From the NCBI RefSeq assembly GCF_003334815.1, contig NZ_QOWO01000018.1: a DNA stretch of 64,000 nucleotides; one strand, given 5' to 3'. The position numbers and the translations under genes were made by a program. This document shows positions 21,941-63,397 of this stretch, one piece after another. Each line of letters opens with the position of its first letter. The stretch's first letter is position 1. The DNA is from Escherichia coli (GTDB lineage Bacteria > Pseudomonadota > Gammaproteobacteria > Enterobacterales > Enterobacteriaceae). The notes beneath the pieces are model-generated. The model was not told the origin of the DNA. It did no database searches and saw nothing but the letters and a program-made list of their open reading frames with translations.

Positions 21941-22219
21941 TTACCCAAAGAGCGCCGCGTGAGTTCCAGTTCTCTCAAATCGTAAAAGTTTATCGGTAAG
22001 TTTGTAAATCAGGATCCAGTCCGGTTCGACATGAGCATCGCGATAACCTTTCCATGAACCTTGCAGCGGGTGGTCTTTATAAACAGCTGGAAGCGGTAAA
22101 GTATTATTGATAAGAAGCGTCATAAGATATTTCAATTTATTCATATCCTTATGACGCTTTTGTGCAAGTTTTACATCCTTTGAATATTGTCCCGAGTATT
22201 CAATATCCCTTTGAATCAT
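21941..22219 (-). CDS. yafQ: Toxin YafQ (RelE/ParE-family ribosome-dependent mRNA interferase)
   Basis: 92-aa ORF directly downstream of dinJ; matches the YafQ toxin. Confidence 0.85.
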   Translation of the reverse strand: MIQRDIEYSGQYSKDVKLAQKRHKDMNKLKYLMTLLINNTLPLPAVYKDHPLQGSWKGYRDAHVEPDWILIYKLTDKLLRFERTGTHAALFG

Positions 22220-22221
22220 AT

Positions 22222-22482
22222 TTAAATTCCTAATTTATCAAATAAATCATCGGCGTCTTTGGCCTTATGAACATCAATGCCAGCTTCGCTGTTTTTGATT
22301 GATTGAATGGTTAATTGATTAGGCTCGCGTAAATCAAACGGCAATGCCTTTTCACGCGCGACCTTTGTGAGGGTTATGCGAACCAGGTCAGAGATGGTCA
22401 GCCCCATCCCGGCCAGTACGTCCGCTGCCTGATTCTTCAGATCTTCATCGATTCGGGCGCGAACAAACGCGTTAGCAGCCAT
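22222..22482 (-). CDS. dinJ: Antitoxin DinJ
   Basis: 86-aa ORF MAANAFVRARIDEDLKNQAADVLAGMGLTISD... (RHH-type antitoxin), 3 bp upstream of yafQ. Confidence 0.85.
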   Translation of the reverse strand: MAANAFVRARIDEDLKNQAADVLAGMGLTISDLVRITLTKVAREKALPFDLREPNQLTIQSIKNSEAGIDVHKAKDADDLFDKLGI

Positions 22483-22498
22483 TGGGGTATCTCCTGTG

Positions 22499-22514
22499 CT
22501 GTATATTTATTCAG
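22499..22514 (-). promoter_or_regulatory. LexA box (SOS operator) upstream of dinJ
   Basis: CTGTATATTTATTCAG fits CTGT-N8-ACAG with one mismatch, 17 bp upstream of the dinJ start. Confidence 0.6.
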
Positions 22515-22691
22515 CTTGAATTGTAGCTCAAATGAGCAACAGCGACAATCCATGAGTAATTTAATAAACGGATGTTTTTACATAATTAACTGAAATATAT
22601 ATGTTAATTTTATAATAATGGTTTATTAAGTTTGTTCAGAAACGATCCGGGATACACTGCAACATTAAAGCATGACCAGCCATTATTGAGT

Positions 22692-23441
22692 ATGTCCTTG
22701 CCGTCGATTCCATCCTTTGTATTGTCGGGATTACTGTTGATTTGTTTGCCGTTTTCTTCATTTGCCAGCGCCACCACATCACATATCTCTTTCAGCTACG
22801 CCGCCCGCCAGCGGATGCAAAACCGTGCGCGTTTATTAAAACAGTACCAAACTCATCTGAAAAAGCAGGCCAGCTATATTGTGGAAGGCAATGCCGAAAG
22901 CAAAAGGGCGCTACGCCAGCACAACCGGGAGCAGATAAAACAGCATCCAGAATGGTTTCCTGCTCCGCTCAAGGCGAGTGACAGACGCTGGCAGGCGCTG
23001 GCGGAAAACAACCACTTTTTAAGCAGCGACCATCTGCATAACATTACCGAAGTGGCGATTCACCGCCTGGAGCAGCAGCTTGGCAAGCCTTACGTCTGGG
23101 GCGGTACGCGGCCTGATAAAGGCTTTGACTGTAGCGGGTTGGTTTTTTATGCCTACAACAAGATCCTTGAGGCTAAGCTCCCGCGCACGGCCAATGAGAT
23201 GTACCACTATCGCCGGGCAACGATTGTGGCGAACAACGACCTGCGCCGGGGAGATTTGCTGTTTTTCCATATCCACAGCCGCGAGATAGCCGATCATATG
23301 GGCGTGTATTTGGGCGATGGGCAATTTATCGAGTCGCCACGTACCGGCGAAACCATTCGGATAAGCCGATTAGCCGAACCTTTCTGGCAGGACCATTTTT
23401 TGGGCGCGCGCAGGATTTTGACGGAAGAGACGATTTTGTAG
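22692..23441 (+). CDS. yafL: NlpC/P60-family peptidoglycan endopeptidase lipoprotein
   Basis: 249-aa product; NlpC/P60 catalytic Cys (GFDCSGLVFYAY) and His; ATG at 22692. Confidence 0.8.
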   Translation: MSLPSIPSFVLSGLLLICLPFSSFASATTSHISFSYAARQRMQNRARLLKQYQTHLKKQASYIVEGNAESKRALRQHNREQIKQHPEWFPAPLKASDRRWQALAENNHFLSSDHLHNITEVAIHRLEQQLGKPYVWGGTRPDKGFDCSGLVFYAYNKILEAKLPRTANEMYHYRRATIVANNDLRRGDLLFFHIHSREIADHMGVYLGDGQFIESPRTGETIRISRLAEPFWQDHFLGARRILTEETIL

Positions 23442-23525
23442 GACGGATAAGGCGTTTACGCCGCATCCGGCAGTTGTACGCAGGTGCCTGATGCGACGCT
23501 GGCGCGTCTTATCATGCCTACGAGC
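23441..23525. repeat. REP pair (BIME) upstream of rayT
   Basis: Two inverted REP palindromes. Confidence 0.75.
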
Positions 23526-23616
23526 CCGCGAATATTTGCGAGCCGCTTTCCCGATATAAAACAACCTCATTGCCAACCTTTCCTTTTCTTCTTACCGTTG
23601 AGAAAAAGGAGTCGCC

Positions 23617-24114
23617 ATGTCTGAATATCGTCGTTATTACATCAAGGGGGGAACATGGTTTTTCACGGTGAATTTACGAAATCGTCGAAGCCAACTTTTG
23701 ACCACCCAGTACCAGATGCTCCGTCACGCCATTATTAAAGTTAAGCGAGACAGGCCTTTTGAAATCAACGCCTGGGTCGTTTTGCCAGAGCATATGCACT
23801 GTATCTGGACATTACCTGAAGGCGATGATGATTTTTCCTCGCGCTGGCGGGAAATTAAAAAGCAATTTACCCATGCTTGTGGATTGAAAAATATCTGGCA
23901 ACCACGTTTTTGGGAGCACGCCATCCGCAATACCAAAGATTATAGGCATCATGTTGATTATATTTATATAAATCCAGTAAAGCATGGTTGGGTAAAGCAA
24001 GTGAGTGATTGGCCATTCTCAACGTTCCATCGCGATGTCGCGCGAGGGTTATATCCCATCGATTGGGCGGGGGACGTAACGGATTTTAGTGCCGGGGAGC
24101 GTATCATTTCATAA
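23617..24114 (+). CDS. rayT: REP-associated tyrosine transposase (RayT / TnpA-REP)
   Basis: 165-aa ORF with HuH-type motif (EHMHCIW) and conserved Tyr region; flanked on both sides by REP clusters. Confidence 0.85.
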   Translation: MSEYRRYYIKGGTWFFTVNLRNRRSQLLTTQYQMLRHAIIKVKRDRPFEINAWVVLPEHMHCIWTLPEGDDDFSSRWREIKKQFTHACGLKNIWQPRFWEHAIRNTKDYRHHVDYIYINPVKHGWVKQVSDWPFSTFHRDVARGLYPIDWAGDVTDFSAGERIIS

Positions 24115-29355: not shown

Positions 29356-29723
29356 GGTGCCAGGTCGTTGATATCGCGGGTGTTAAATTCCAGCACGCGC
29401 AGGCCGTACTTCTCGTTGACCACCACCACTTCCGCTTTGCCCAGCAGGATATTGTTCACTTTAATATCCAGCGGCTCCCCGGCGAGTTTATCCAGCTCAA
29501 TCACCGTGTCGTCGTCGATGTTAAGGAGGTCGGCTAACATGATCTCCACCGACGACACTTCCAGCGTTAAGGTCACCGGAATGCGTTTTAGCAGCGTCAT
29601 CGAGTCGGAAAAACGGTCTTCCAGGCGGGTGACCAGCGTTTCAGCGTCGGCGGATTTTGCGACAGGCGCAACTTCATCGGTGAGGCCAAAATCCCCGGCT
29701 AAAATATCTTCTTGCTTACTCAT
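29352..29723 (-). CDS. lfiN: Lateral flagellar motor switch protein, FliN homologue
   Basis: C-terminal SpoA/FliN domain (ELDKLAGEPLDIKVNNILLGKAEVVVVNEKYGLRV); ATG at 29723. Confidence 0.8.
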   Translation of the reverse strand: MSKQEDILAGDFGLTDEVAPVAKSADAETLVTRLEDRFSDSMTLLKRIPVTLTLEVSSVEIMLADLLNIDDDTVIELDKLAGEPLDIKVNNILLGKAEVVVVNEKYGLRVLEFNTRDINDLAP

Positions 29724-30567
29724 GGCTATTCTCATTTTTGCCCGCCAGCTCCGACAAAAACAGTTTGTCTTTGTCTTCCACAATCAGGGCGCTAAATAAT
29801 TCAGATTGCCCAATCGCCACCGGGAACGTTTCTCCCAGCGAGATGGGTAAAATATCCCCGGCTTTTATCTGCGTGAGATCCGCGACATTCATCGATAGCT
29901 CGGCGATTTTGACGTTCAGGGTCAGCGGCAGGGAGCGGATGATCTCTTTAATCAGGGCCGGTTTATTGACGGATTTCGCCACCTGCTGCGGTTTACTGTG
30001 CTCGCTGTGGCGGATCAGATTTAAAATAAAATCGGTGTGGGCGTCGTCGAGCAAAATACGAAAACAGCTCTCTTCATCGCCCGCAAGGGTAAAGGTTAAT
30101 TGATACGCCCAGTGGGTAATCACCGTGCTGCTGTCCAGCTTTAATTTCAGCGCAATACCGGAGGTTTGCAGATTAAATATCAGCGTGCAGATATCCAGCG
30201 CGAGTCGGTTCTTTAATCGTGTTTCGGTTTTGGTCGGCAGGCCGTTATGCGCTTTCGCCTCTTCAAGAGACGACTCCAGACCATAAAAATTGCCCAGCAG
30301 CATTAACAGCAAGGAGCGATCAATATCAAACGCCAGATGCCCGACCTGGGAAATCATTAGTTCAGCGTTTTTATTAATAATATCCATTTCGCAGCCAATC
30401 TTTTTTAAGGTGATATTGCTGCGATGCTTTTTGAGAAAGTAGCTGCCCAGATGCGAATCAATCACGTCAAAATTCCCCGTAAACAGGGTCGGCAGGTGAT
30501 GGTAGGGGCGTCCGAGCCGATTACCTTCTAATTTAAAGATGCCTGGCGTTTTACTGTACTTCAGCAT
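29716..30567 (-). CDS. lfiM: Lateral flagellar motor switch protein, FliM homologue
   Basis: 283-aa ORF, first gene of the lfiM-to-lfhA operon; FliM-like size and position. Confidence 0.75.
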   Translation of the reverse strand: MLKYSKTPGIFKLEGNRLGRPYHHLPTLFTGNFDVIDSHLGSYFLKKHRSNITLKKIGCEMDIINKNAELMISQVGHLAFDIDRSLLLMLLGNFYGLESSLEEAKAHNGLPTKTETRLKNRLALDICTLIFNLQTSGIALKLKLDSSTVITHWAYQLTFTLAGDEESCFRILLDDAHTDFILNLIRHSEHSKPQQVAKSVNKPALIKEIIRSLPLTLNVKIAELSMNVADLTQIKAGDILPISLGETFPVAIGQSELFSALIVEDKDKLFLSELAGKNENSHE

Positions 30568-30740
30568 GGCTTACTTTCTCTGCTGTAATGGTATGGGCGA
30601 TTTTGTGCACGCAAATCCGGCAGTGACACAAGGTGAGGTATTAAATAGAGGGGGAGTGAAAGGGGCAAATTATTAATAGGATGAAAAAATAATTAAATTA
30701 TTAAAGGGCTAGATATCAGGCATCGTCATAACACATTGCA

Positions 30741-30833
<93 letters not shown>

Positions 30834-30953
30834 ATAACTCATTGTTTACCATAAAATAATATTTTTATTATCGTTTAATTCGAACTTGTTAATCCCGCCG
30901 GTGATACGCTTCACAATATCCTGTTTTCTGTCGCTACTGATATCGTTCACCCT

Positions 30954-31940
30954 ATGTCTGAACTTATTGCAACTGCCGCTTCCAGCATTAACGCTTTTAC
31001 TCTGGCAAAGCGTGTCGCCGCATTTAACGTGCCGGTGCTCATTCAGGGCGAAACCGGCGCGGGCAAAGAATGCGTGGCGAAATATATTCACACCGTAGCC
31101 TTTGGTGAAAATGATAACGCGCCCTATATCGGCGTGAACTGCGCAGCGATCCCGGAAAACATGCTGGAAGCTACATTATTTGGCTACGACAAAGGCGCAT
31201 TTACCGGCGCAATTGCCAGTGTGCCAGGAAAAATGGAACTAGCGAATAACGGCACCTTATTACTCGATGAAATTGGCGATATGCCGCTGGCGCTACAGGC
31301 CAAAATATTACGCGTATTGCAGGAGCAACAGGTTGAGCGATTAGGCAGCAACCGACAAATTAAACTCAATTTTCGCCTGATTGCCTGCACCAATAAAAAC
31401 CTTGAACAGGAAGTGGCTGCCGGGCGTTTTCGTGAAGATCTCTATTATCGTCTGGCGGTTATTCCTATTACCATGCCGCCACTGCGTGAACGTCTGAACG
31501 ATATTATTCCGCTGGCAGAGTCATTTATAAAAAAGTACTCCACGGTGCTGGTGAAAAATATCACCCTTTCAGAATCTACCCGCCGGGCGCTGCTCAATTA
31601 CCGCTGGCCCGGCAACGTGCGCCAGCTGGAGAACGCCATTCAGCGGGGAATGATTTTAAATCGCGACGGCGTGATTTACCCGGATGCCTTAGGCCTGCCG
31701 GAAACGGACGTTGCCGACCGCAGCGAACTGCAATGGCCTGTTCAGCCCGCCGTCCACATTGCCGAAACCAGCGATTTGGGCCAGCACGGACGAAGCGCCC
31801 AGTATCAATATATCGCTGACCTGATGCGTAAATATCAGGGCAACCGCAGCAAAATCGCCGACCTGTTAGGCATTACCCCGCGCGCACTGCGCTATCGACT
31901 GGCCTCCATGCGCAAGCAAGGTATCGAAGTTTTCTCCTGA
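30954..31940 (+). CDS. lafK: Sigma-54-dependent transcriptional activator (AAA+ domain plus C-terminal HTH; no receiver domain)
   Basis: Walker A GETGAGKE about 30 aa from the N-terminus, GAFTGA sigma-54 contact motif, C-terminal HTH (IADLLGITPRALRYRL). Confidence 0.85.
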   Translation: MSELIATAASSINAFTLAKRVAAFNVPVLIQGETGAGKECVAKYIHTVAFGENDNAPYIGVNCAAIPENMLEATLFGYDKGAFTGAIASVPGKMELANNGTLLLDEIGDMPLALQAKILRVLQEQQVERLGSNRQIKLNFRLIACTNKNLEQEVAAGRFREDLYYRLAVIPITMPPLRERLNDIIPLAESFIKKYSTVLVKNITLSESTRRALLNYRWPGNVRQLENAIQRGMILNRDGVIYPDALGLPETDVADRSELQWPVQPAVHIAETSDLGQHGRSAQYQYIADLMRKYQGNRSKIADLLGITPRALRYRLASMRKQGIEVFS

Positions 31941-31954
31941 CCCGGAAGTTAAAA

Positions 31955-32296
31955 ATGAGCATTACCACAATCAACAGCACCATGCAGGCGCAAATCATGC
32001 AGGACGTGCAGCGGATGCAGGCCAACGCCCAGGCGCCGGTGCTACCCGCCATGACCTTCAGTTCCACAGACCCGGACGTGTCGTTTAACCGCATTATGTA
32101 CGGCGCGCTTGGTCATGTTGATCAGTTCCAGCAGGTGGCGGAGCAGCAGCAAACGGCTGTCGACACGGGCAAAAGTGATGACCTGGCAGGTGCGATGATC
32201 GCCAGCCAGCAGGCGTCGCTCTCTTTCTCCGCGCTGGTGCAGGTGCGCAATAAAATCGCCACCGGGTTTAACGACCTGATGAGTATGTCGATCTAA
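31955..32296 (+). CDS. lfiE: Lateral flagellar hook-basal body protein, FliE homologue
   Basis: 113-aa ORF at the head of the FliE-J cluster. Confidence 0.75.
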   Translation: MSITTINSTMQAQIMQDVQRMQANAQAPVLPAMTFSSTDPDVSFNRIMYGALGHVDQFQQVAEQQQTAVDTGKSDDLAGAMIASQQASLSFSALVQVRNKIATGFNDLMSMSI

Positions 32297-37931: not shown

Positions 37932-40376
37932 TTACCCCAGCGCCTCCACAATCACAATCGCCGCCCGTTCTCCCGCCTTGCCATCCATAAACGCATCGCA
38001 ATAGTGATGGCGAATCTCCGTAAGCCGCGCCTGCACCGACCCCCAGTCAAACGCCTCTGACAACAAATAACGCAGTTCTGCAACATCATGAGCAACCGGC
38101 AATATTTCGCGGATTCGCTGGTCGGCGCTCTCTGCCGTGGAATAACTTTTCTCACCGTCGAGCAAATCATTCATGCCCGGAAAGTCGAGCAGGATCACCC
38201 GCTTATCAACGTGGATAGCATCGAAAATAAACCCGCTGTTATCGGTCAGCACGTAATCGGCTTTTGCCAGCAGCGCCAGCGTGTGGCGGGCGGAGTCGGT
38301 GCGCTGTTTTAAATGCCTGCGCACCAGGGCCAGCGATGCTGCTTCTTCCGGGCGTGAGCAGGTGCCATGGTGCAGTTTGCAAATCAGGTTCACATCACCG
38401 CTCAAGCGGCCCAATTTTTCAGCCCAGTGGGGCAGGGAGCTTAATGCGCCAAACGTTGGGGCATAGAGCACCGTAGGTTTACGGTAATCTGATTGGATGT
38501 TTTCCGGCAACGCGCGATCGAACGTGCCGTTATGCCAGGCGTCGAAGCGCGGGTTGCCGACCACTTTTGCGCTGCCGAAATGCGCCAGCGCCTGCTGACT
38601 GTAGTGGCTATAACACAAAATGCTTTGGTAAAAACGATTCCAGTCGGCGTGGTTCCACGTCTCTTTGGCTAAGCCGTACATAGCGCGGATGTTCACCGCC
38701 GCCAGGCCATTGAGCGCAGGCGTGTGGTAGGGGCTGACCAGGCATTTCACCCGCTGACCATGTGTCTGCATTTCTGACAGACGCATACCTTTAAGCTGCG
38801 GATCGTCGATGTTTTTCAGTGTTTCCAGCATCTCATCAAGAAACGGTTTAAACACGCGGTCATTGATCACTAGTGTGCAGCTCTGCCCCTGCGCCTGTAG
38901 AGCGGTGATGATTGGGCGGTACAGCGTGTAGTGGAATGAGGTTTCCATAAAAAAGCCGATGGTATCGGCGATGGGTAATGTAGATGGCTTGGTGGCTACG
39001 GGTAACTTATTGAAATAGTGAGCAATATTATCAGTCGTTTTTTTCTCGATATCACTAAAACCCGGTCGCTGGTAGCAAAGGCTCGGGTAACAGGCCAGCC
39101 ATTTGTCGGCGCGTAGCAGCGGCTGCCAGCAGGCTTCCAGCGAGTGCTCATCGTTGCTCATCTGCTGCGCCAGTTGCGGGTAGTAGCGGCTGTTCACCAG
39201 ATACGCGCACACTTTGCGGCAGTCCCGCGCGTGCACCAGCCCCGGCAAACTTTTTAGCATCGTTCCCTGCGAAATTTCGCCACCGAGGATCATCACCTGC
39301 CAGGGAATTTTCGCCAGGCTCGCCAGCAGCGTGTTCAGTACCTGAATATGTTTCTCCTGCTTGAGAATAACCGCGTCATCTTCCAGCAGCAGGTAGTTTT
39401 GCCAGCCGTGCTGTTGCGCCAGGCGCAGCGCCTGTAAGTGCGACTGACGGCGGCCCCGTTGACCGTTTTCATCTTCACTGGCGGCAAGGCGGGTGATCTT
39501 CTCAGGTGGAATATGCAGCAATGCCAGTTCTTCACGGATCTGTTGTAAGCGATCCGGGCGTTTATCCAGATTCAGCAGAACGATCTGATCGATCGCCTGA
39601 TGGTTGATCGCCTGGTGATGAGTGGCGTTATGCAGACTCAGATAAGCATTGCGCAGCAGCGGATCGCGGACGATATCCGTAAGCGCCGCGTTTACTGGCG
39701 TGCTGGCCCCGAGAATAAAATCTTTATCAAAGGTGTTGTGACTATGCGAGATACACAGAATCGTGCGCTCGCCGGGCAGTTGCAGCGGGTTTACGCTGAA
39801 ATTGTCGGTGAAACGTTTCTCTTCGCCTAAATTGCAATCATCGTCGTAACGGTGCTTTTTCAGGTAGTTACGGTGATAGCAAAAGGTGCCGTTGAGGATG
39901 TTATGCGGGCCAAAGCTGCGGCTTTGAAAGATGCGGTTGATGTGGCTGTACCAGATGGGGATCTGATCGGAGCCGGAGATGAGCGCCCGGTGTTTTTGCA
40001 TCATGGCGATGGTGTAAGAGATTTTATCTGCCGGGTAGTAGTCGTCATCGTCCATGCAGAGGATGTATTCGCCGCGCGCCAGTTCGTTGAGCATGTTGCG
40101 TTTTTTGCCCAGCGGCAGTTTTTCCGGGTGATGGATGTAGCGGATGTTAAAGGCTTCCGGCGTGCCATTGGTCAGGCGGTCGATGATGTGTTGATGGCTT
40201 TGTGGGGAATCGTCGAGGATGATGAGTTCGCGGCGGTCTGCCGGGTAATCCTGATAGCGGTACATATAGAGCAGGTACGGCAGGAATGCGCCGCGGTTCC
40301 AGGTTGGCGTGACGACGCTGACAAACGGTTTTTCGCGGTGGGTGTTGAGTGTTTTGATGATGGTTGGTGTTGGCAT
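37932..40376 (-). CDS. Multidomain glycosyltransferase (N-terminal GT-A/GT2-like, central GT25-like, C-terminal TagB/TagF-like CDP-glycerol glycerophosphotransferase)
   Basis: ORF 37932..40448; ATG at 40376 chosen (upstream residues lie in the inverted-repeat element); motifs VSVVTPTWNR, ILDDSP, DDDDYY, central VLLNLDKRPDRL, C-terminal VLYAPTF / YVLTDNSGFIFDAIHVDKRVILL. Confidence 0.65.
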   Translation of the reverse strand: MPTPTIIKTLNTHREKPFVSVVTPTWNRGAFLPYLLYMYRYQDYPADRRELIILDDSPQSHQHIIDRLTNGTPEAFNIRYIHHPEKLPLGKKRNMLNELARGEYILCMDDDDYYPADKISYTIAMMQKHRALISGSDQIPIWYSHINRIFQSRSFGPHNILNGTFCYHRNYLKKHRYDDDCNLGEEKRFTDNFSVNPLQLPGERTILCISHSHNTFDKDFILGASTPVNAALTDIVRDPLLRNAYLSLHNATHHQAINHQAIDQIVLLNLDKRPDRLQQIREELALLHIPPEKITRLAASEDENGQRGRRQSHLQALRLAQQHGWQNYLLLEDDAVILKQEKHIQVLNTLLASLAKIPWQVMILGGEISQGTMLKSLPGLVHARDCRKVCAYLVNSRYYPQLAQQMSNDEHSLEACWQPLLRADKWLACYPSLCYQRPGFSDIEKKTTDNIAHYFNKLPVATKPSTLPIADTIGFFMETSFHYTLYRPIITALQAQGQSCTLVINDRVFKPFLDEMLETLKNIDDPQLKGMRLSEMQTHGQRVKCLVSPYHTPALNGLAAVNIRAMYGLAKETWNHADWNRFYQSILCYSHYSQQALAHFGSAKVVGNPRFDAWHNGTFDRALPENIQSDYRKPTVLYAPTFGALSSLPHWAEKLGRLSGDVNLICKLHHGTCSRPEEAASLALVRRHLKQRTDSARHTLALLAKADYVLTDNSGFIFDAIHVDKRVILLDFPGMNDLLDGEKSYSTAESADQRIREILPVAHDVAELRYLLSEAFDWGSVQARLTEIRHHYCDAFMDGKAGERAAIVIVEALG

Positions 40377-40401
40377 GGTGTTTGGGTGAGTTAATGGGTG
40401 A

Positions 40402-40548
40402 ATGTGATGAATGTGCGCGCTGATGCCCTCACCCCAACCCTCTCCCACAGGGAGAGGGAGAAAATCAGCGCCGATTTTAACACTGTGCTCGATCGGTCCC
40501 CTCGCCCCTTTGGGGAGAGGGTTAGGGTGAGGGGCAAAGCGCGCACAG
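40402..40548. mobile_element. MITE-like element with about 35-bp terminal inverted repeats (family unassigned)
   Basis: Left arm tgtgcgcgctgatgccctcaccccaaccctctccc (40402..40436) and right arm, reverse-complemented, tgtgcgcgctttgcccctcaccctaaccctctccc (40514..40548); internal palindrome ccctctccc/gggagaggg. Confidence 0.55.
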
Positions 40549-40554
40549 AGCGAC

Positions 40555-41484
40555 TCACGTTAGCAGCGAAAACGCTGAAAGCAGCGGGTCGGCGGCACAT
40601 AACGACTGAATTTGCTGGCGAACCAACAGCGCATTTTCACTGGCTCGCCAGCGTTCAAACATGGCAAAGAGGGCGAAAATATCCTCCTGCCGCAGCGAAG
40701 AACCATCCAGCGTCCATAAACTGATTAACGTGCGGAGGAGATAAAAATCGCACACCAGCGGGAAATAATCCGCCCCGTCAGTCTGCCCAATCACATCGTG
40801 GTAAACGCGGTAAATCAGCCAGTTACGCATCATCCAGGGCGCGGTGGCAAAATGCTGTTGCCAGGTGGTTTGCCACTGCGTCTGAAGCTGCTGTTGTAAC
40901 AGGGCTTCGCTGTTAGCGTCATGCAGCGTCAGCAAAGGCATCTGCAACGGCAGCGAAGTTTTGCGCGGGCTTTCCGGCAAAATCGACCAGTCAAACGTAA
41001 AACTCCCGAGTAACGTGGCCAGGTGACGCGCCAGCTGTGGCACGGGCGGCAGCTGGGCGAACTGTGCCTGTAGGATGCCTTTTTTCGCATGATCGGCCAG
41101 CGCCTGCGGCAGCGTCGTCAAACGGGCAAGAATATCTCCGTCTCTGCCCGGCATTTTACTGGCGCGGGAGAGCAGGATACCGACGGCATACAATGACAGT
41201 TCTGGTGTTAAATCACGGAGCGTGAGGGTACTCAAAATCACCTGGTTTACTATCGCATCGCGCGCGGAAAGCTCTGCGGCATTTTCTTCCACAGGACGGT
41301 AGGTGAGCTGTAAATCAAAGGCCCTGACATCGTTGAGCATCGCTTCGCAGCTTTCTGGCTCTGTCAGCATCAGGCTCAGGCGAATCTCGTTTTTCCACAC
41401 CTTGCGGACGTATAAAGGCGAACCGGGGTATTGCGTCATAAAATTGCGCACGTATTCCGGTTCGTAACATTCAATAAAACTCAT
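40555..41484 (-). CDS. Hypothetical protein (Flag-2 accessory, unknown function)
   Basis: 309-aa ORF from the ATG at 41484; no recognisable motifs; sigma-54-type promoter upstream. Confidence 0.6.
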   Translation of the reverse strand: MSFIECYEPEYVRNFMTQYPGSPLYVRKVWKNEIRLSLMLTEPESCEAMLNDVRAFDLQLTYRPVEENAAELSARDAIVNQVILSTLTLRDLTPELSLYAVGILLSRASKMPGRDGDILARLTTLPQALADHAKKGILQAQFAQLPPVPQLARHLATLLGSFTFDWSILPESPRKTSLPLQMPLLTLHDANSEALLQQQLQTQWQTTWQQHFATAPWMMRNWLIYRVYHDVIGQTDGADYFPLVCDFYLLRTLISLWTLDGSSLRQEDIFALFAMFERWRASENALLVRQQIQSLCAADPLLSAFSLLT

Positions 41485-41518: not shown

Positions 41519-41534
41519 TGCAATAAGCGTGCCG
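41519..41534 (-). promoter_or_regulatory. Sigma-54-type promoter (-24 GG / -12 GC) upstream of the hypothetical/glycosyltransferase genes
   Basis: Minus strand reads CGGCACG-CTTA-TTGCA (plus strand tgcaataagcgtgccg), matching TGGCACG-N4-TTGCA at 14 of 15 fixed positions with correct GG/GC spacing; about 35 bp upstream of the ATG at 41484. Confidence 0.55.
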
Positions 41535-41611
41535 GGATTTTTTGTAGTCAAAAACAAGGGATTGGCAATCAGGCGGAAAATCCGTTTCCGCGATGGGGGA
41601 AGGTATTGTCG

Positions 41612-42411: not shown

Positions 42412-43149
42412 TTACTCCGCGCTTACCGTTGTCACCACGCCGCTTTCCGCCACCATCGCGCTGATGACCCGCTGGCTGCTGGCGTTACGCACTTTCACCA
42501 TCTCGCCTTTGCGACCATTTTTCAGCGTCACGCCGGGCATCGAGGCGGTGATCCCCGCGCTCTGGTAAACAATCATCACCGGCTGATCGCGCCCGACCAG
42601 CACCGGAGACACCAGCTCTTCTTTGGTGATTGGCCTGCCTGGTTGCAGCGCGTGTTTACTGCTGAAACCAATCGCGTCATCGAGTTCCATCAACACCTCC
42701 CTGCGCTGGGCGCTGACGTTGTAGGGCTTCAACTCCACATCATTTGCCGTGAGCGGCGTATCGCGGGCAACCAGTGACTTTGTCATCACCACCGGCACCA
42801 GCACATCCGGGCGCACCGCCACGTTCATCTGCCAGCTTTGCGGGCAACTGACGGTGAAGTTCATCCGGTTGAGGGCGATTTCCGCAGGCGAAGTGAGCGT
42901 AACGCCGGGTGTAGTCGCACAGGGCGCGGCGGTCGCAATCTGCGAGGGAATGTAGACCTTAAAGGTGTAGTGATAGTCATGCCACTGCCGCTGTTGCGCC
43001 AGCGATTCAATTTTTTGGCTCGCGGCATTCAGCACCTGGGCGTTGACTTGTTCCCGCGCGCTGTGCTGCACGGGGTGGACGGCGGCGTAGCCCGGTAAGG
43101 CCAGCGCCAGGAGGAAATAAAACTTCCGCCTGCAAAATTGAAAACTCAT
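42412..43149 (-). CDS. lfgA: Lateral flagellar P-ring assembly chaperone, FlgA homologue
   Basis: Signal peptide plus FlgA-like C-terminal domain; ATG at 43149; divergent from lfgB. Confidence 0.7.
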   Translation of the reverse strand: MSFQFCRRKFYFLLALALPGYAAVHPVQHSAREQVNAQVLNAASQKIESLAQQRQWHDYHYTFKVYIPSQIATAAPCATTPGVTLTSPAEIALNRMNFTVSCPQSWQMNVAVRPDVLVPVVMTKSLVARDTPLTANDVELKPYNVSAQRREVLMELDDAIGFSSKHALQPGRPITKEELVSPVLVGRDQPVMIVYQSAGITASMPGVTLKNGRKGEMVKVRNASSQRVISAMVAESGVVTTVSAE

Positions 43150-43178
43150 AAACCCTTTCTCATCAGTCACTTAAAAAA

Positions 43179-43193
43179 TGGCACGGCGATTGC
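43179..43193 (+). promoter_or_regulatory. Sigma-54 promoter upstream of lfgB
   Basis: Perfect TGGCAC-N5-TTGC (tggcacggcgattgc), about 40 bp upstream of the proposed lfgB start. Confidence 0.7.
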
Positions 43194-43230
43194 TTAGCGT
43201 ATGCGGATTGAAGCAGGAGTGACGCAGGAA

Positions 43231-53619: not shown

Positions 53620-54462
53620 TCAGCACTTCTGCACAGTATTTAACAACTTCTCTAAATTCTGATACATCGCGCTATTAATATCGCTATTCTGCCACTCATC
53701 CACATTAAAGGTTAATTGCCAGCTACCGTTGCACTGGTTGCGCAGAACAATATCACTCTCCAGTCGGTTACGAACATATTTATAATAGGTTGTCATTGTC
53801 ATATTATGCGCTGACAATAAATTATCGAGTTTGTCTTTTCCTGGTGCGAGGGTTTGTGACAGTAACGGTGCGGAATTATTTTCTTTTCCAGAACTAAGGT
53901 GAAATATTTTTATTCTTGGGCTGTTAATTGACTCTTTTACCAGTTGCGGGGCGTCAGGTGTACTTTTCAAGTGTGAATACCCCACGGTCGAGCCAATAAA
54001 TATAACAGCCGCGGTCAACGCTAACCCCATCAGTCCTTTATGTTTTTTTCTAACAGGCACAGGCAGGGTTGTCGAAGATATCTCTCCTGGCACAGTTTCC
54101 TGTACCTGGTTGGTAATAATCAGCGCTTCCGCAGGCGATGACTCCGGCAAAGACACATACTCTTTATTGCACAGGTAACCTTTTTTCGGGATGGTTTTAA
54201 TAATGTTCTGTTGTTTGCCATCATCGTCGATAGCAACGCGTAATGCATGTATCGCCGTCGGCAGGCTGTTACCGCCGACAATGCGGTTCTTCCATACTTC
54301 GGCACATAAATAAGATCGCGATAAAACCACATCGGCATTTTTTGCTAATGTTTCCAGCAAAATAAAATGGTATTCGCCGAGACGACGTGTTTCACCCGTT
54401 TCGCAATGTATTAAGGCATTAAGCGACGGGTCCATCCGCCAGTTGTTGATAATAATACTCAT
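53620..54462 (-). CDS. lafZ: ToxR/CadC-like transmembrane transcriptional regulator (OmpR-type winged helix, single TM, periplasmic domain)
   Basis: ATG at 54462 verified codon by codon; N-terminal winged-helix region then TM helix LMGLALTAAVIFIGSTVGY; divergent from lafA. Confidence 0.6.
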   Translation of the reverse strand: MSIIINNWRMDPSLNALIHCETGETRRLGEYHFILLETLAKNADVVLSRSYLCAEVWKNRIVGGNSLPTAIHALRVAIDDDGKQQNIIKTIPKKGYLCNKEYVSLPESSPAEALIITNQVQETVPGEISSTTLPVPVRKKHKGLMGLALTAAVIFIGSTVGYSHLKSTPDAPQLVKESINSPRIKIFHLSSGKENNSAPLLSQTLAPGKDKLDNLLSAHNMTMTTYYKYVRNRLESDIVLRNQCNGSWQLTFNVDEWQNSDINSAMYQNLEKLLNTVQKC

Positions 54463-54947
54463 AGTTGAGTTTACCTTAGCAAGGGATAAATGTTTCCTGA
54501 TAGTGCTTTGCATAAAGCACAGTCTTATACGTCCCTGAGAAGATGATTTTTCTGCGTGATAATTAATATTTTATGGTAATAGGATTATTCTTAATCACTA
54601 TATGGCGTGGAAATGTAACGAAATGACAGGACAGGTACAATAGCCAAATGTGTACTATTTGCAACGCAATGTAAATTTTGGCATCAGTACATTGAGAAGA
54701 AAACGCGTTAATTGATGGTAATCTTAACTATATCAAGCGTTTGATAAAGACATATTTTGATACCTGGCCATGTGGCAGATATTGCTAATAATCTTTTTAT
54801 CTGAATTTAAACTCTGCTTTTTTTAGCTAAAAGTGGCATCAGATAAACCGCAGTGAAATTTTTTTAACGGCGGTTTTAAGTTTGCTCCCGAGGTGTCGTT
54901 TTTACAGGGTATCGAAACGAAAACGATTAATCCCAAGGAGCAGTATC

Positions 54948-55869: not shown

Positions 55870-55978
55870 CTTGCCGGATGCGGCGTGAACGCCTTATCCG
55901 GCCTACAAAATATTGCAAATTCAATATATTGCAGAAACCTTGTAGGCCTGATAAGCGCAGCGCATCAGGCAGTGTTGC
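55870..55978. repeat. REP pair (BIME) downstream of lafA
   Basis: Two inverted REP palindromes. Confidence 0.7.
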
Positions 55979-56020: not shown

Positions 56021-56105
56021 TTTCTGCGGCAGGCGTATTTCCACCAGACCGGAAATGGCCTTTCCGCCCATTTTTCAATCTATTGATTATTCACATAAAA
56101 ATTAT

Positions 56106-56120
56106 TGGCACGCCTTTTGC
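56106..56120 (+). promoter_or_regulatory. Sigma-54 promoter upstream of lafB
   Basis: Perfect TGGCAC-N5-TTGC (tggcacgccttttgc), 33 bp upstream of the lafB start. Confidence 0.7.
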
Positions 56121-56152
56121 CAATAACCTGACATCGTTATCCGGAGTCATCA

Positions 56153-62341: not shown

Positions 62342-63397
62342 ATGCGTAAAATCATTCATGTGGATATGGACTGCTTTTTCGCCGCAGTGGAGATGCGCGA
62401 CAATCCCGCCCTGCGCGATATCCCTATTGCTATTGGCGGCAGCCGCGAACGTCGGGGGGTGATCAGCACCGCCAATTATCCCGCGCGTAAATTTGGCGTA
62501 CGTAGCGCTATGCCGACAGGGATGGCGCTCAAATTATGCCCACATCTCACCTTGCTTCCGGGGCGCTTTGACGCCTACAAAGAAGCCTCAAATCATATCC
62601 GTGAAATCTTCTCGCGCTACACCTCGCGCATTGAACCGTTGTCACTGGATGAGGCTTATCTCGATGTCACCGATAGCGTCCATTGCCACGGTTCTGCGAC
62701 CCTCATCGCCCAGGAAATCCGCCAGACAATCTTCAACGAGCTGCAACTGACGGCGTCTGCGGGCGTGGCACCAGTAAAGTTTCTCGCCAAAATCGCCTCC
62801 GACATGAATAAACCCAACGGCCAGTTTGTGATTACGCCGGCAGAAGTTCCGGCATTTTTACAAACCTTACCGCTGGCAAAAATCCCCGGCGTCGGCAAAG
62901 TCTCAGCGGCAAAACTGGAAGCGATGGGGCTGCGGACCTGCGGTGATGTACAAAAGTGTGATCTGGTGATGCTGCTTAAACGCTTTGGCAAATTTGGCCG
63001 CATTTTGTGGGAGCGTAGTCAGGGGATTGACGAACGCGATGTTAACAGCGAACGGTTGCGAAAATCCGTCGGCGTGGAACGCACGATGGCGGAAGATATT
63101 CATCACTGGTCTGAATGTGAAGCGATTATCGAGCGGCTGTATCCGGAACTTGAACGCCGTCTGGCAAAGGTAAAACCTGATTTACTGATTGCTCGCCAGG
63201 GGGTGAAATTAAAGTTCGACGATTTTCAGCAAACCACCCAGGAGCACGTCTGGCCGCGGCTGAATAAAGCTGATCTAATCGCCACCGCGCGTAAAACCTG
63301 GGATGAACGCCGCGGCGGGCGCGGTGTGCGTCTGGTGGGGCTGCATGTGACGTTGCTTGACCCGCAAATGGAAAGACAACTGGTGCTGGGATTATGA
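62342..63397 (+). CDS. dinB: DNA polymerase IV (Y-family translesion polymerase)
   Basis: 351-aa [36 protein letters not shown]... with Y-family catalytic motifs. Confidence 0.9.

Follow-up and report, generated by a model that had tools for sequence, protein, structure and literature searches.

The Flag-2 (lateral flagella) locus of Escherichia coli raises the question as to how a flagellar sigma-54 activator carrying no sensory domain of its own might be controlled. The window, i.e., the whole stretch of 64,000 nucleotides of E. coli DNA analyzed here, carries this locus, and the stretch is present in approximately 23% of the complete E. coli genomes in our collection and missing from approximately 77%. 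The Flag-2 genes in the window encode flagellar structural, export, or modification proteins, along with LafZ, LafS, and LfgM. LafZ is a Flag-2-specific CadC/ToxR-like membrane regulator. The gene encoding the activator, lafK, lies between the lfiM operon and lfiE, which is the location typical of LafK orthologues; the lafK-fliE adjacency was also found in Vibrio, in one Aeromonadaceae genome, and in P. fragi. Since lfiE begins 14 nt past the lafK stop codon, lafK and lfiEFGHIJ probably form one operon. The features of this region are as follows.

29716..30567, minus strand: lfiM (FliM-like), first gene of the divergent lfiMNPQR-lfhBA operon (open reading frame list, annotation)
30568..30953, no strand: divergent lfiM-lafK intergenic region, 386 bp (composition, frame, and motif scans)
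30747..30829, no strand: REP pair (BIME), two inverted REP hairpins (inverted repeats I1-I3)
30831..30860, plus strand: weak sigma-70-like promoter match TGGATA-18-AATAAT (consensus match only)
30954..31940, plus strand: lafK coding sequence (open reading frame list, RefSeq/PGAP, Pfam)
30969..31469, plus strand: sigma-54 interaction (AAA+) domain, residues 6-172 (Pfam PF00158)
31485..31691, plus strand: AAA+ lid domain, residues 178-246 (Pfam PF25601)
31803..31904, plus strand: Fis-type HTH_8 DNA-binding domain, residues 284-317 (Pfam PF02954)
31955..32296, plus strand: lfiE (FliE-like) (open reading frame list, annotation)

The lafK open reading frame begins with an ATG and consists of 328 codons plus a stop. 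The same 328-aa coding sequence with the same start is annotated by RefSeq/PGAP in an identical E. coli chromosome (WP_001292204.1), and the gene is 100% identical across many E. coli chromosomes. The Pfam scan identified Sigma54_activat (E 8.6e-64, model positions 3-167 of 168), AAA_lid_14 (E 1.1e-19), and HTH_8 (E 2.3e-8), and no domain before residue 6. The catalytic motifs are all intact: Walker A (GETGAGKE) occupies residues 32-39 (31047-31070), an exact GAFTGA is present at residues 81-86 (31194-31211), Walker B (LDEI) at residues 104-107, and FREDLYYRL, the arginine-finger region, at residues 159-167; WPGNVRQL was found at residues 218-225. E. coli LafK consists only of a sigma-54 AAA+ module and a C-terminal HTH, without any sensor domain. 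The open reading frame, the Pfam domains, and the positions of the motifs therefore confirm the minimal architecture put forward in the original prediction, which placed Walker A approximately 30 residues from the N-terminus. With its AAA+ domain bearing Walker A and B, an arginine-finger region, a GAFTGA loop, and a Fis-type HTH, LafK has the features of a bacterial enhancer-binding protein (bEBP); it lacks the N-terminal phosphorylatable REC of NtrC-type response regulators, and, as in type Ic (receiver-less) bEBPs, its AAA+ domain stands at the very beginning of the protein while the HTH is kept.

The relatives occurring at the lafK position elsewhere (FlrC/FleR and Vibrio LafK) do carry N-terminal domains, and the short gene might therefore result from an error in annotation or sequence, in which case the true protein would begin upstream and include a receiver. 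This is hardly conceivable in view of the lfiM-lafK spacer, which amounts to only 386 bp, is common to the divergent lfiM promoter, holds the REP pair, and shows stops in all three forward frames. The nearest in-frame stop (TAA, 30876-30878) lies 25 codons upstream of lafK, and no ATG, GTG, or TTG occurs between this stop and the lafK ATG. When the receiver-type N-termini of eight relatives were used in tblastn searches, the best match in 30400-31000 had an E of 0.14 and nothing significant was obtained window-wide; no separate REC-like open reading frame was found within the window either. A hidden upstream start or a frameshift was rejected on these grounds (stops in all frames, no start codon, and no receiver-like translation). 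In addition, the short form recurs in many genera, and the few receiver-bearing LafK "relatives" of 462-521 aa are assembly chimeras, so that the artefact reading can be taken to be already refuted at the sequence level. The G+C content of the spacer is 43%, and 35-40% outside the REP pair, vs. 52.6% for the window: an AT-rich spacer with a REP pair and no in-frame receiver remnant had been noted, and its composition, the BIME at 30747-30829, and the tblastn results all bear this out.

As to the expression of lafK, the match at 30831..30860 was the only candidate lafK promoter found, and a generic sigma-70 and terminator scan yielded weak matches only. No recognizable Shine-Dalgarno-like sequence precedes the lafK ATG, and given this absence, the translation of lafK could be poor or regulated.

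The ranking obtained upon searching 1.84 billion representatives mixes LafK-like and generic NtrC-family proteins showing 45-52% identity. Since rank alone could not define the LafK orthologues, these were defined by gene order, not by search rank. All the named enterobacterial orthologues are 324-348 aa long, have no receiver, show 60-84% identity across many genera, and form a clade with 100% bootstrap support, the deep branching of the tree being left unsettled. All the Vibrionaceae orthologues are 441-456 aa long, the Aeromonadaceae orthologue (one genome, order flhA-lafK-fliE) is 450 aa long and has a receiver, and the P. fragi homologue, which is located upstream of fliEFGH and falls closest to the enterobacterial clade in 54% of bootstrap replicates, is 468 aa long. 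These long forms carry approximately 120-145 extra N-terminal residues, which correspond to a degenerate receiver in Vibrionaceae and Aeromonadaceae. The comparison on the Vibrio side covered close Harveyi-clade and other Vibrionaceae orthologues, including that of V. campbellii (444 aa), where fliM_L is divergent from motY_L lafK fliE_L fliF_L fliG_L. The first methionine of E. coli LafK aligns with residue 123 of the V. campbellii protein, residues 7-113 of which give a weak full-length match with Response_reg (E 3.5e-4), and in the Harveyi-type sequences the acidic pocket and the phospho-Asp of the receiver have been replaced.

E. coli LafK is therefore without the (pseudo)receiver of Vibrionaceae/Aeromonadaceae LafK, and this domain is a lineage feature, not part of the published definition of LafK. 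The suggestion that a short N-terminus might be universal stands as far as the named enterobacterial orthologues are concerned, and because it is universal there, it is not informative about this strain in particular; it does not extend to LafK overall, where the Vibrionaceae, Aeromonadaceae, and P. fragi proteins are longer. Likewise, the alignment with Vibrio orthologues that had been proposed upheld the receiver-less nature of the E. coli protein, but not that of the V. campbellii type, which adds approximately 122 residues at the N-terminus. The enterobacterial short form most probably arose by the loss of a degenerate receiver of approximately 120 residues, loss being preferred to gain in Enterobacterales because it is parsimonious. 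Four receiver- or ACT-domain-bearing proteins with 62-73% identity and 462-521 aa (P0053, P0068, P0110, and P0080) were discarded as metagenome assembly chimeras, in which E. coli NtrC or TyrR N-termini are joined to LafK C-termini at the words FREDL(Y/F)(Y/H)RL, PPLRER, or WPGNVR. An Aeromonas caviae match (H21) turned out to be the polar FlrC.

Sites of the TGGCAC-N5-TTGC type, as expected of bEBP target promoters, lie directly 5' of lfgB, lafB, and a fliB-like gene encoding a flagellin lysine-methylase, which is followed by a glycosyltransferase gene. The sigma-54 promoters at lfgB and lafB have been previously reported in strain PCN033 (PMC4578781). At each of the three promoters, an 18-nt inverted-repeat-like motif, GGAAA-N6-TTCCGCC, was found 56-67 bp upstream of the -24 element (spacings of 56, 56, and 67 bp).

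43113..43194, plus strand: candidate LafK enhancer GGAAATAAAACTTCCGCC (43113-43130) and sigma-54 promoter TGGCACGGCGATTGCT (43179-43194), before lfgB (probable ATG 43232) (motif/promoter scans)
56051..56121, plus strand: candidate LafK enhancer GGAAATGGCCTTTCCGCC (56051-56068) and sigma-54 promoter TGGCACGCCTTTTGCC (56106-56121), before lafB (ATG 56153) (motif/promoter scans)
41519..41589, minus strand: candidate LafK enhancer GGAAACGGATTTTCCGCC (41589-41572) and sigma-54 promoter CGGCACGCTTATTGCA (41534-41519), before the FliB-like flagellin lysine-methylase gene (ATG 41484) (motif/promoter scans)

Exact copies of the motif number three, one per promoter, vs. 0.02 expected, and when one mismatch was allowed, seven were observed vs. 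0.43 expected. A scan for the motif and promoter together in 100,044 species genomes gave 19 matches, 15 of which are located directly upstream of lfgB, lafB, or fliB-like homologues, including those in Vibrio rotiferianus and Photobacterium galatheae. Judging by its position and its conservation from Escherichia to Vibrio and Photobacterium, GGAAA-N6-TTCCGCC is a candidate LafK enhancer. It lies nearer its promoter than classical enhancers do. Neither a sigma-54 promoter nor the candidate motif was found upstream of lafK or lfiM in the spacer between them, and the same was true upstream of lafK in V. campbellii, the Aeromonadaceae genome, and P. fragi. A sigma-28 scan with the E. coli FliA-type consensus (TAAAG-N14-GCCGATAA) did not yield any convincing site at lafA.

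Taken together, these data suggest, with a probability of roughly three in four, that LafK is a two-part bEBP acting at three Flag-2 promoters, that its activity follows its concentration, and that its receiver has been lost in Enterobacterales. The HTH would bind GGAAA-N6-TTCCGCC upstream of the lfgB, lafB, and fliB-like promoters; LafK would then oligomerize and hydrolyze ATP, and its GAFTGA loop would remodel the sigma-54 holoenzyme, giving rise to open complexes. The lafS gene (sigma-28), which is part of the lafB operon, would subsequently drive the late genes. The activity of LafK would follow its concentration, so that whether lateral flagella are made would be decided when lafK is transcribed or translated (class 1). 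This concentration-driven model is the simplest because LafK has no input domain and the lafK promoter region has neither a sigma-54 promoter nor a LafK site. The idea put forward in the original prediction that LafK may be constitutively active, control being exerted at lafK transcription or via a partner, is plausible: argued from the absence of a domain, it agrees with the classing of the receiver-less PspF and HrpR/S (Francke et al., 2011) and with the control of lafK in V. parahaemolyticus. In the latter species, the lafK mRNA is strongly controlled, OpaR repressing it approximately 50-100 fold; the lateral hook-basal-body and filament-cap operons require LafK, whereas the fliM_L operon is LafK-independent (PMC3930126). 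The searchable literature yielded no experimental work on E. coli LafK, and the function of Flag-2 in E. coli is unproven.

A separate protein, encoded within Flag-2 or elsewhere, might gate the AAA+ domain of LafK, along the lines of PspF/PspA, HrpS/HrpV, and FleQ/FleN: PspF is held by PspA and HrpS by HrpV, while FleQ is antagonized by FleN. This is unlikely since the annotated Flag-2 genes of the window include no obvious partner candidate. LafK presumably also has no Trp where PspF carries W56, its contact with PspA, which likewise speaks against gating of this kind. In its favor, the best-studied receiver-less activators work via partner proteins (the class described in PMC3162934), and the EAL-like LafV of V. 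parahaemolyticus modulates the surface regulon in a LafK-dependent manner (PMC9303241).

A variant of the loss scenario, which we put forward only tentatively, is that LafK of Enterobacterales represents a Vibrio-type LafK which has naturally lost its N-terminal part and still serves the same enhancer/promoter set. The lost pseudo-receiver would then have been dispensable and probably inhibitory, and the input would have moved elsewhere (e.g., to LafZ at the AT-rich lafK promoter, or to a partner protein), while the compact, helically phased spacing of 56, 56, and 67 bp would reflect a LafK-specific short-range geometry.

Direct sensing of a small molecule such as c-di-GMP by the AAA+ domain, as in FleQ/FlrA, would make a separate sensor unnecessary. 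In FleQ, an Arg of the LFRS motif, which immediately precedes the AAA+ core, and an Arg/Asn after Walker A are among the residues that contact c-di-GMP. LafK presumably begins past the position of the first of these and probably reads K43-Y44 at the second; in addition, its closest solved relative is FlrC, not FleQ. This possibility is therefore very improbable, although a structural relationship with FleQ can be detected (E about 5e-64) and Vibrio lateral flagella are under the control of c-di-GMP (PMC9303241).

Finally, the loss of the N-terminal part might have inactivated or uncoupled LafK, in which case E. coli lafK would be a decaying remnant and Flag-2 cryptic. Flag-2 has been described as probably inactive in strain 042, which has an lfgC frameshift (PMC4578781); the absence of the locus from so many complete genomes, the lack of a Shine-Dalgarno sequence before lafK, and the existence of disrupted variants (a LafK-LfiE fusion, P0009; truncated clusters; IS1 next to lafK) all point in the same direction. 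The remnant reading is improbable, however, given that the catalytic motifs have all been kept, that the short LafK has been maintained at its level of identity over many genera, its mean identity (67.2%) being similar to that of its gene cluster (67.8%; PMC6993521), and that the presumed target promoters and the enhancer motif are conserved across genera. The Flag-2 open reading frames of the window, including lfgC, all appear to be full length.

The receiver-less architecture of LafK was already known (Francke et al., 2011). What the comparison appears to add is that the Vibrio-type LafK retains a degenerate receiver which enterobacterial LafK has most probably lost. The label "LafK without a signal domain" suits the protein of Enterobacterales better than it does the prototype from Vibrio. 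Any environmental control of E. coli Flag-2 would have to be looked for outside LafK, either at the promoter of lafK or in a partner. The comparison also provides a conserved candidate LafK site and a regulon of three promoters that takes in flagellin-modification genes, both of which can now be tested directly.

Among the known systems, LafK has been listed along with PspF and HrpR/S as an activator without a signal domain, type Ic (Francke et al., 2011, PMC3162934). In PspF, the phage-shock activator of E. coli, and in HrpR/HrpS of P. syringae, as in LafK, the AAA+ domain is directly N-terminal and followed by the HTH in a protein of approximately 325 aa, and LafK residue 4 aligns with residue 8 of the PspF AAA+ constructs. 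However, PspF and HrpS have dedicated partners (PspA and HrpV) encoded beside them and none is evident in the Flag-2 annotation; the presumed targets of LafK are flagellar, and its similarity to PspF amounts to 184 bits vs. 256 bits to FlrC.

The Vibrio LafK (V. parahaemolyticus VPA1538 type) occupies the orthologous position, lafK fliE_L fliF_L being divergent from fliM_L, and is 48% identical to E. coli LafK over the entire length of the latter, with a near-identical HTH region in V. campbellii; the same candidate enhancer and sigma-54 promoter occur upstream of the Vibrio lafB homologue. It differs in its length (441-456 aa), the approximately 122 extra N-terminal residues constituting the degenerate receiver, and in that motY_L precedes lafK in Vibrio. 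FlrC and FleR, which are the class-III response regulators for the polar flagella of Vibrio, Aeromonas, and Pseudomonas, are likewise encoded immediately upstream of fliE and show about 48% identity with LafK, the AAA+ domain of V. cholerae FlrC being the closest solved structure (E 3.7e-75); they have a canonical phosphorylatable receiver and an upstream cognate kinase (FlrB, FleS), whereas LafK has neither. FleT of Rhodobacter sphaeroides, H. pylori FlgR, and Chlamydia CtcC are, like LafK, flagellar or related sigma-54 activators which have shed accessory domains: FleT has neither receiver nor HTH, FlgR and CtcC have lost the HTH but keep the receiver, whereas LafK keeps the HTH and has no receiver.

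As originally predicted, LafK consists only of the AAA+ sigma-54 module and a C-terminal HTH: three Pfam domains were identified in the protein, and no further Pfam domain occurs N-terminal of them. The Walker A motif lies near the N-terminus and the GAFTGA motif is present, as had also been claimed, and this structural interpretation is correct. The features are located as follows:

30954-31940 (+): lafK ORF, 328 aa, with the same start in PGAP
LafK residues 6-172: Sigma54_activat domain (Pfam, E 8.6e-64, model positions 3-167 of 168)
LafK residues 178-246: AAA lid (Pfam)
LafK residues 284-317: HTH_8 (Pfam)
LafK residues 32-39: Walker A
LafK residues 81-86: GAFTGA
LafK residues 104-107: Walker B
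LafK residues 159-167: arginine-finger region
LafK residues 218-225: sensor II

The NCBIfam matches fall on the middle and C-terminal portions of longer activators, such as NifA, FlbD, NorR, NtrC, and PspF, and all of them are far under the family cut-offs. Among the solved structures, the AAA+ domain of V. cholerae FlrC is the best match (E 3.7e-75), and residue 8 of the PspF constructs aligns with LafK residue 4.

The lfiM-lafK spacer (30568-30953) is 386 bp long and has a G+C content of 43%, or 35-40% outside the REP pair, versus 52.6% in the window:

30747-30829: two inverted REP hairpins in the lfiM-lafK spacer

Stops are present in all three forward frames of the spacer; the in-frame one before lafK is a TAA at 30876-30878, 25 codons upstream of the ATG, and no alternative start codon lies between the two. 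In tblastn searches with eight receiver-type N-termini, no receiver remnant was found in the spacer (the best match, obtained with permissive settings, covered 17 aa at E 0.14), nor was there an ORF in the window for a separate receiver-like protein. The G+C content, hairpins, stops, and tblastn results agree with the AT-rich upstream region, REP pair, and lack of an in-frame receiver remnant described initially, and together with the ORF, domain, and motif checks they therefore bear out every element of that observation. A longer hidden LafK protein is ruled out at the sequence level by the stops in all forward frames, the lack of an alternative start, and the lack of a receiver match.

The locus is that of the Flag-2 lateral flagella, published as lfhAB-lfiRQPNM-lafK-lfiEFGHIJ (PMC6993521). 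The 1.8-kb stretch around lafK matches many E. coli chromosomes at 100% identity, and at least 80% of it is present in 1271 of the 5426 complete E. coli genomes. The gene order in an annotated copy is dpaA-yafQ-dinJ-yafL-rayT, followed by flhA-flhB-fliR-fliQ-fliP-fliN-fliM on the minus strand and then by the sigma-54 protein gene and fliE-fliF-fliG-fliH-fliI-fliJ. All the Flag-2 ORFs of the window, including lfgC, are apparently of full length. The window edges (62342-63397, +, and 21941-24114) agree with the K-12 neighborhood, where dinB follows lafU and yafQ-dinJ-yafL-rayT precede lfhA; the comparison with an annotated genome covered the left flank, and dinB was assigned from its position and its length of 351 aa. 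Since these edges match, the intact Flag-2 locus occupies the site at which K-12 presumably carries only Flag-2 remnants. In E. coli O6:H16 strain M9682-C1 (NZ_CP024275.1 366520-369097), an IS1 lies inside the lfiM-lafK stretch, and the match is in two pieces spanning 2578 bp versus 1801 bp. In one genome, that of strain ECZU08, a LafK-LfiE fusion of 446 aa is annotated (P0009), in which lafK runs into lfiE through a frameshift within the HTH-coding region.

The possibility that the short N-terminus might be universal holds in Enterobacterales but not outside this order. The intact Enterobacterales orthologues, from Escherichia, Citrobacter, Leminorella, Enterobacter, Pseudescherichia, Scandinavium, Atlantibacter, Siccibacter, Budvicia, Pantoea, Regiella, Hafnia, Pragia, Paramixta, and others, are 324-348 aa long, show 59-84% identity and the same three Pfam domains, and carry no receiver. 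A few matches of 462-521 aa with a Response_reg or ACT domain (P0053, P0068, P0110, and P0080) were rejected as metagenome assembly chimeras, their N-terminal halves being E. coli NtrC or TyrR and their C-terminal halves LafK; the joints fall in short words that sigma-54 activators share (FREDLYYRL and PPLRER, for example), which calls for caution in surveys of domain architecture. By contrast, the ORF on the second chromosome of V. campbellii (stored as a "plasmid") is 444 aa long and shows 47.6% identity to E. coli LafK over 100% of the length of the latter, in the order fliM_L (reverse), then motY_L, lafK, fliE_L, fliF_L, and fliG_L (forward). Its residue 123 aligns with M1 of E. coli LafK, and over the first 113 residues it matches Response_reg, weakly but along the full length of the model (E 3.5e-4, model 1-110 of 111). 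The other Vibrionaceae orthologues (Vibrio, Photobacterium, Grimontia, and Enterovibrio) are all 441-456 aa long, many with a precomputed PF00072; in one Aeromonadaceae genome, the protein encoded between flhA and fliE is 450 aa long and has a clear receiver, and Pseudomonas fragi has a 468-aa homologue encoded directly upstream of fliEFGH. When the N-termini were aligned, those of the Harveyi-type vibrios were found to have lost the acidic pocket (LLVEP-NE), with the phospho-acceptor Asp replaced by S or G and the conserved Lys by R or Q, whereas the Aeromonadaceae-type sequences keep both Asp and Lys; E. coli LafK starts exactly at the receiver-AAA+ linker.

In neighbor-joining trees of the region shared by the LafK relatives, the short enterobacterial proteins form one clade in all 200 bootstraps (100%). 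The nearest neighbor of this clade is the P. fragi protein in 54% of them, and the deeper nodes lack resolution. Since all the orthologues outside Enterobacterales defined by gene order, and nearly all the other relatives, carry an N-terminal domain, the parsimonious reading would be that this domain was lost at the root of the Flag-2 lineage of Enterobacterales. Other receiver-less activators of 336-350 aa, scattered in the tree, are encoded immediately before fliE in unrelated clusters of the polar type, and losses of this kind seem to have taken place repeatedly:

L002 and L003, 5001-6053: receiver-less activator
L004, 5001-6038: receiver-less activator
L005, 5001-6011: receiver-less activator

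In L002, this gene follows a FleQ-like gene and a gene for a 251-aa HisKA/HATPase kinase, which would have no receiver on the neighboring activator. L004 and L005 each contain two receiver-less activator genes side by side. In another lateral-type cluster (L010, GCA_003263805.1), seemingly degraded, the coding sequences of flhB, flhA, and fliF are each broken up into multiple ORFs; its 368-aa LafK homologue retains only the last part of a receiver-like domain and may be either a sequencing artefact or an intermediate stage of N-terminal loss.

Three intergenic matches to sigma-54 promoters were found in the locus, and reading of the sequence before them revealed an 18-nt element, GGAAA-N6-TTCCGCC:

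43179-43194 (+): sigma-54 promoter TGGCACGGCGATTGCT, before lfgB
56106-56121 (+): sigma-54 promoter TGGCACGCCTTTTGCC, before lafB
41534-41519 (-): sigma-54 promoter CGGCACGCTTATTGCA, before the FliB-like gene 40555-41484 (-)
43113-43130 (+): element GGAAATAAAACTTCCGCC, upstream of the lfgB promoter
56051-56068 (+): element GGAAATGGCCTTTCCGCC, upstream of the lafB promoter
41572-41589 (-): element GGAAACGGATTTTCCGCC, upstream of the FliB-like gene promoter

The 64-kb window contains three exact copies versus 0.02 expected from shuffles, and seven matches versus 0.43 expected when one mismatch is allowed. The distances from the element start to the -24 GG are 56, 56, and 67 bp, so that the copies are one helical turn apart in spacing. 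One genome per species (100,044 species) was scanned for the element followed after 35-52 nt by GGCAC-N5-TTGC, which gave 19 matches versus about 2-3 by chance on our own estimate. Fifteen of the 19 lie directly upstream of lfgB, lafB, or fliB-like homologues, in Escherichia spp., Citrobacter, Pseudocitrobacter, Enterobacteriaceae bacterium B14, Vibrio rotiferianus, and Photobacterium galatheae, the lafB homologues of the last two showing 34-36% identity; no flagellar gene lies downstream of the other four (Acidobacteria, Bacteroides, Micrarchaeota, and Schlesneria). The element is therefore common to lineages with receiver-bearing and receiver-less LafK, in agreement with the near-identical HTH regions of E. 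coli and V. campbellii LafK, and its position and conservation point to a candidate LafK enhancer. Flagellin modification would then belong to the LafK regulon via the third promoter: the product of the gene at 40555-41484 weakly matches the flagellin lysine-N-methylase FliB (E 3e-11, under the curated cut-off), and a glycosyltransferase gene (37932-40448, -, 838 aa) follows, both in the variable region that separates Flag-2 cluster 1 from cluster 2. Between lafA and lafB, a second REP pair (BIME, 55872-55975) immediately precedes the candidate enhancer and the promoter of lafB, so that two regulatory regions of Flag-2 are flanked by REP elements. Because of the promoter at 43179-43194, the ORF-called starts of lfgA (GTG 43170) and lfgB (ATG 43201) are probably too long, and the most likely starts are ATG 43149 and ATG 43232, the latter preceded by AGGAG.

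Neither a sigma-54 promoter nor a copy of the element was found in the lfiM-lafK spacer or before lafK at the loci of Vibrio, Aeromonadaceae, and P. fragi. The lafK gene therefore seems to belong to class 1 and to be transcribed from a promoter of the sigma-70 type, to which there is one weak match (30831-30860). Since lfiE starts 14 nt past the lafK stop, the two genes are probably co-transcribed. Since LafK lacks an input domain, its activity would, on the simplest model, follow its concentration, control being exerted on lafK transcription or translation in the AT-rich spacer, where no Shine-Dalgarno sequence was found before the ATG. The functional corollary drawn originally, a constitutively active LafK whose regulon would be governed by lafK transcription or by a partner protein, would be reasonable. 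LafK might instead be a decaying, pseudogene-like regulator, but its motifs are intact, the short form is kept across genera, and its presumed targets are conserved. Gating by a partner protein, which would have precedents in PspA-PspF and HrpV-HrpS, appears less probable; no candidate partner emerged among the annotated Flag-2 genes. Direct sensing of c-di-GMP in the manner of FleQ would be unlikely, judging from the contact residues of FleQ. The Flag-2-specific LafZ (53620-54513, -), which has an N-terminal CadC/ToxR/OmpR-type winged-helix DNA-binding domain and is possibly a membrane-bound sensor-regulator of the system, might speculatively act as an upstream regulator.

The idea of a receiver-less LafK is already known: sigma-54 activators have been classed by domain organization (Francke et al., 2011; PMC3162934), and a receiver-less class naming LafK is present in the literature. 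The PCN033 genome paper reported a full-length Sigma54 activation domain in E. coli LafK and TGGCAC-N5-TTGC sites before lfgB and lafB (PMC4578781), and comparative Flag-2 papers describe LafK as a predicted regulator specific to Flag-2 (PMC6993521 among them). The additions of the present analysis are modest: the longer orthologues of Vibrio, Aeromonadaceae, and P. fragi, whose contrast with the short form suggests that a degenerate receiver was lost in Enterobacterales, the conserved candidate enhancer, and the third LafK-type promoter, before flagellin-modification genes. LafK of V. parahaemolyticus is an activator of the lateral genes that depend on sigma-54, and the fliM_L operon does not depend on LafK (PMC3930126, PMC4481668); lafK transcription in this species is heavily regulated, with repression by OpaR lowering it to 0.01-0.02 of its level without repression (PMC4406679); in Aeromonas hydrophila, LafK and other class I lateral flagellar genes are described as sigma-70-dependent (PMC4481668). 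The literature label "no signal domain" fits E. coli LafK strictly and Vibrio LafK only loosely.
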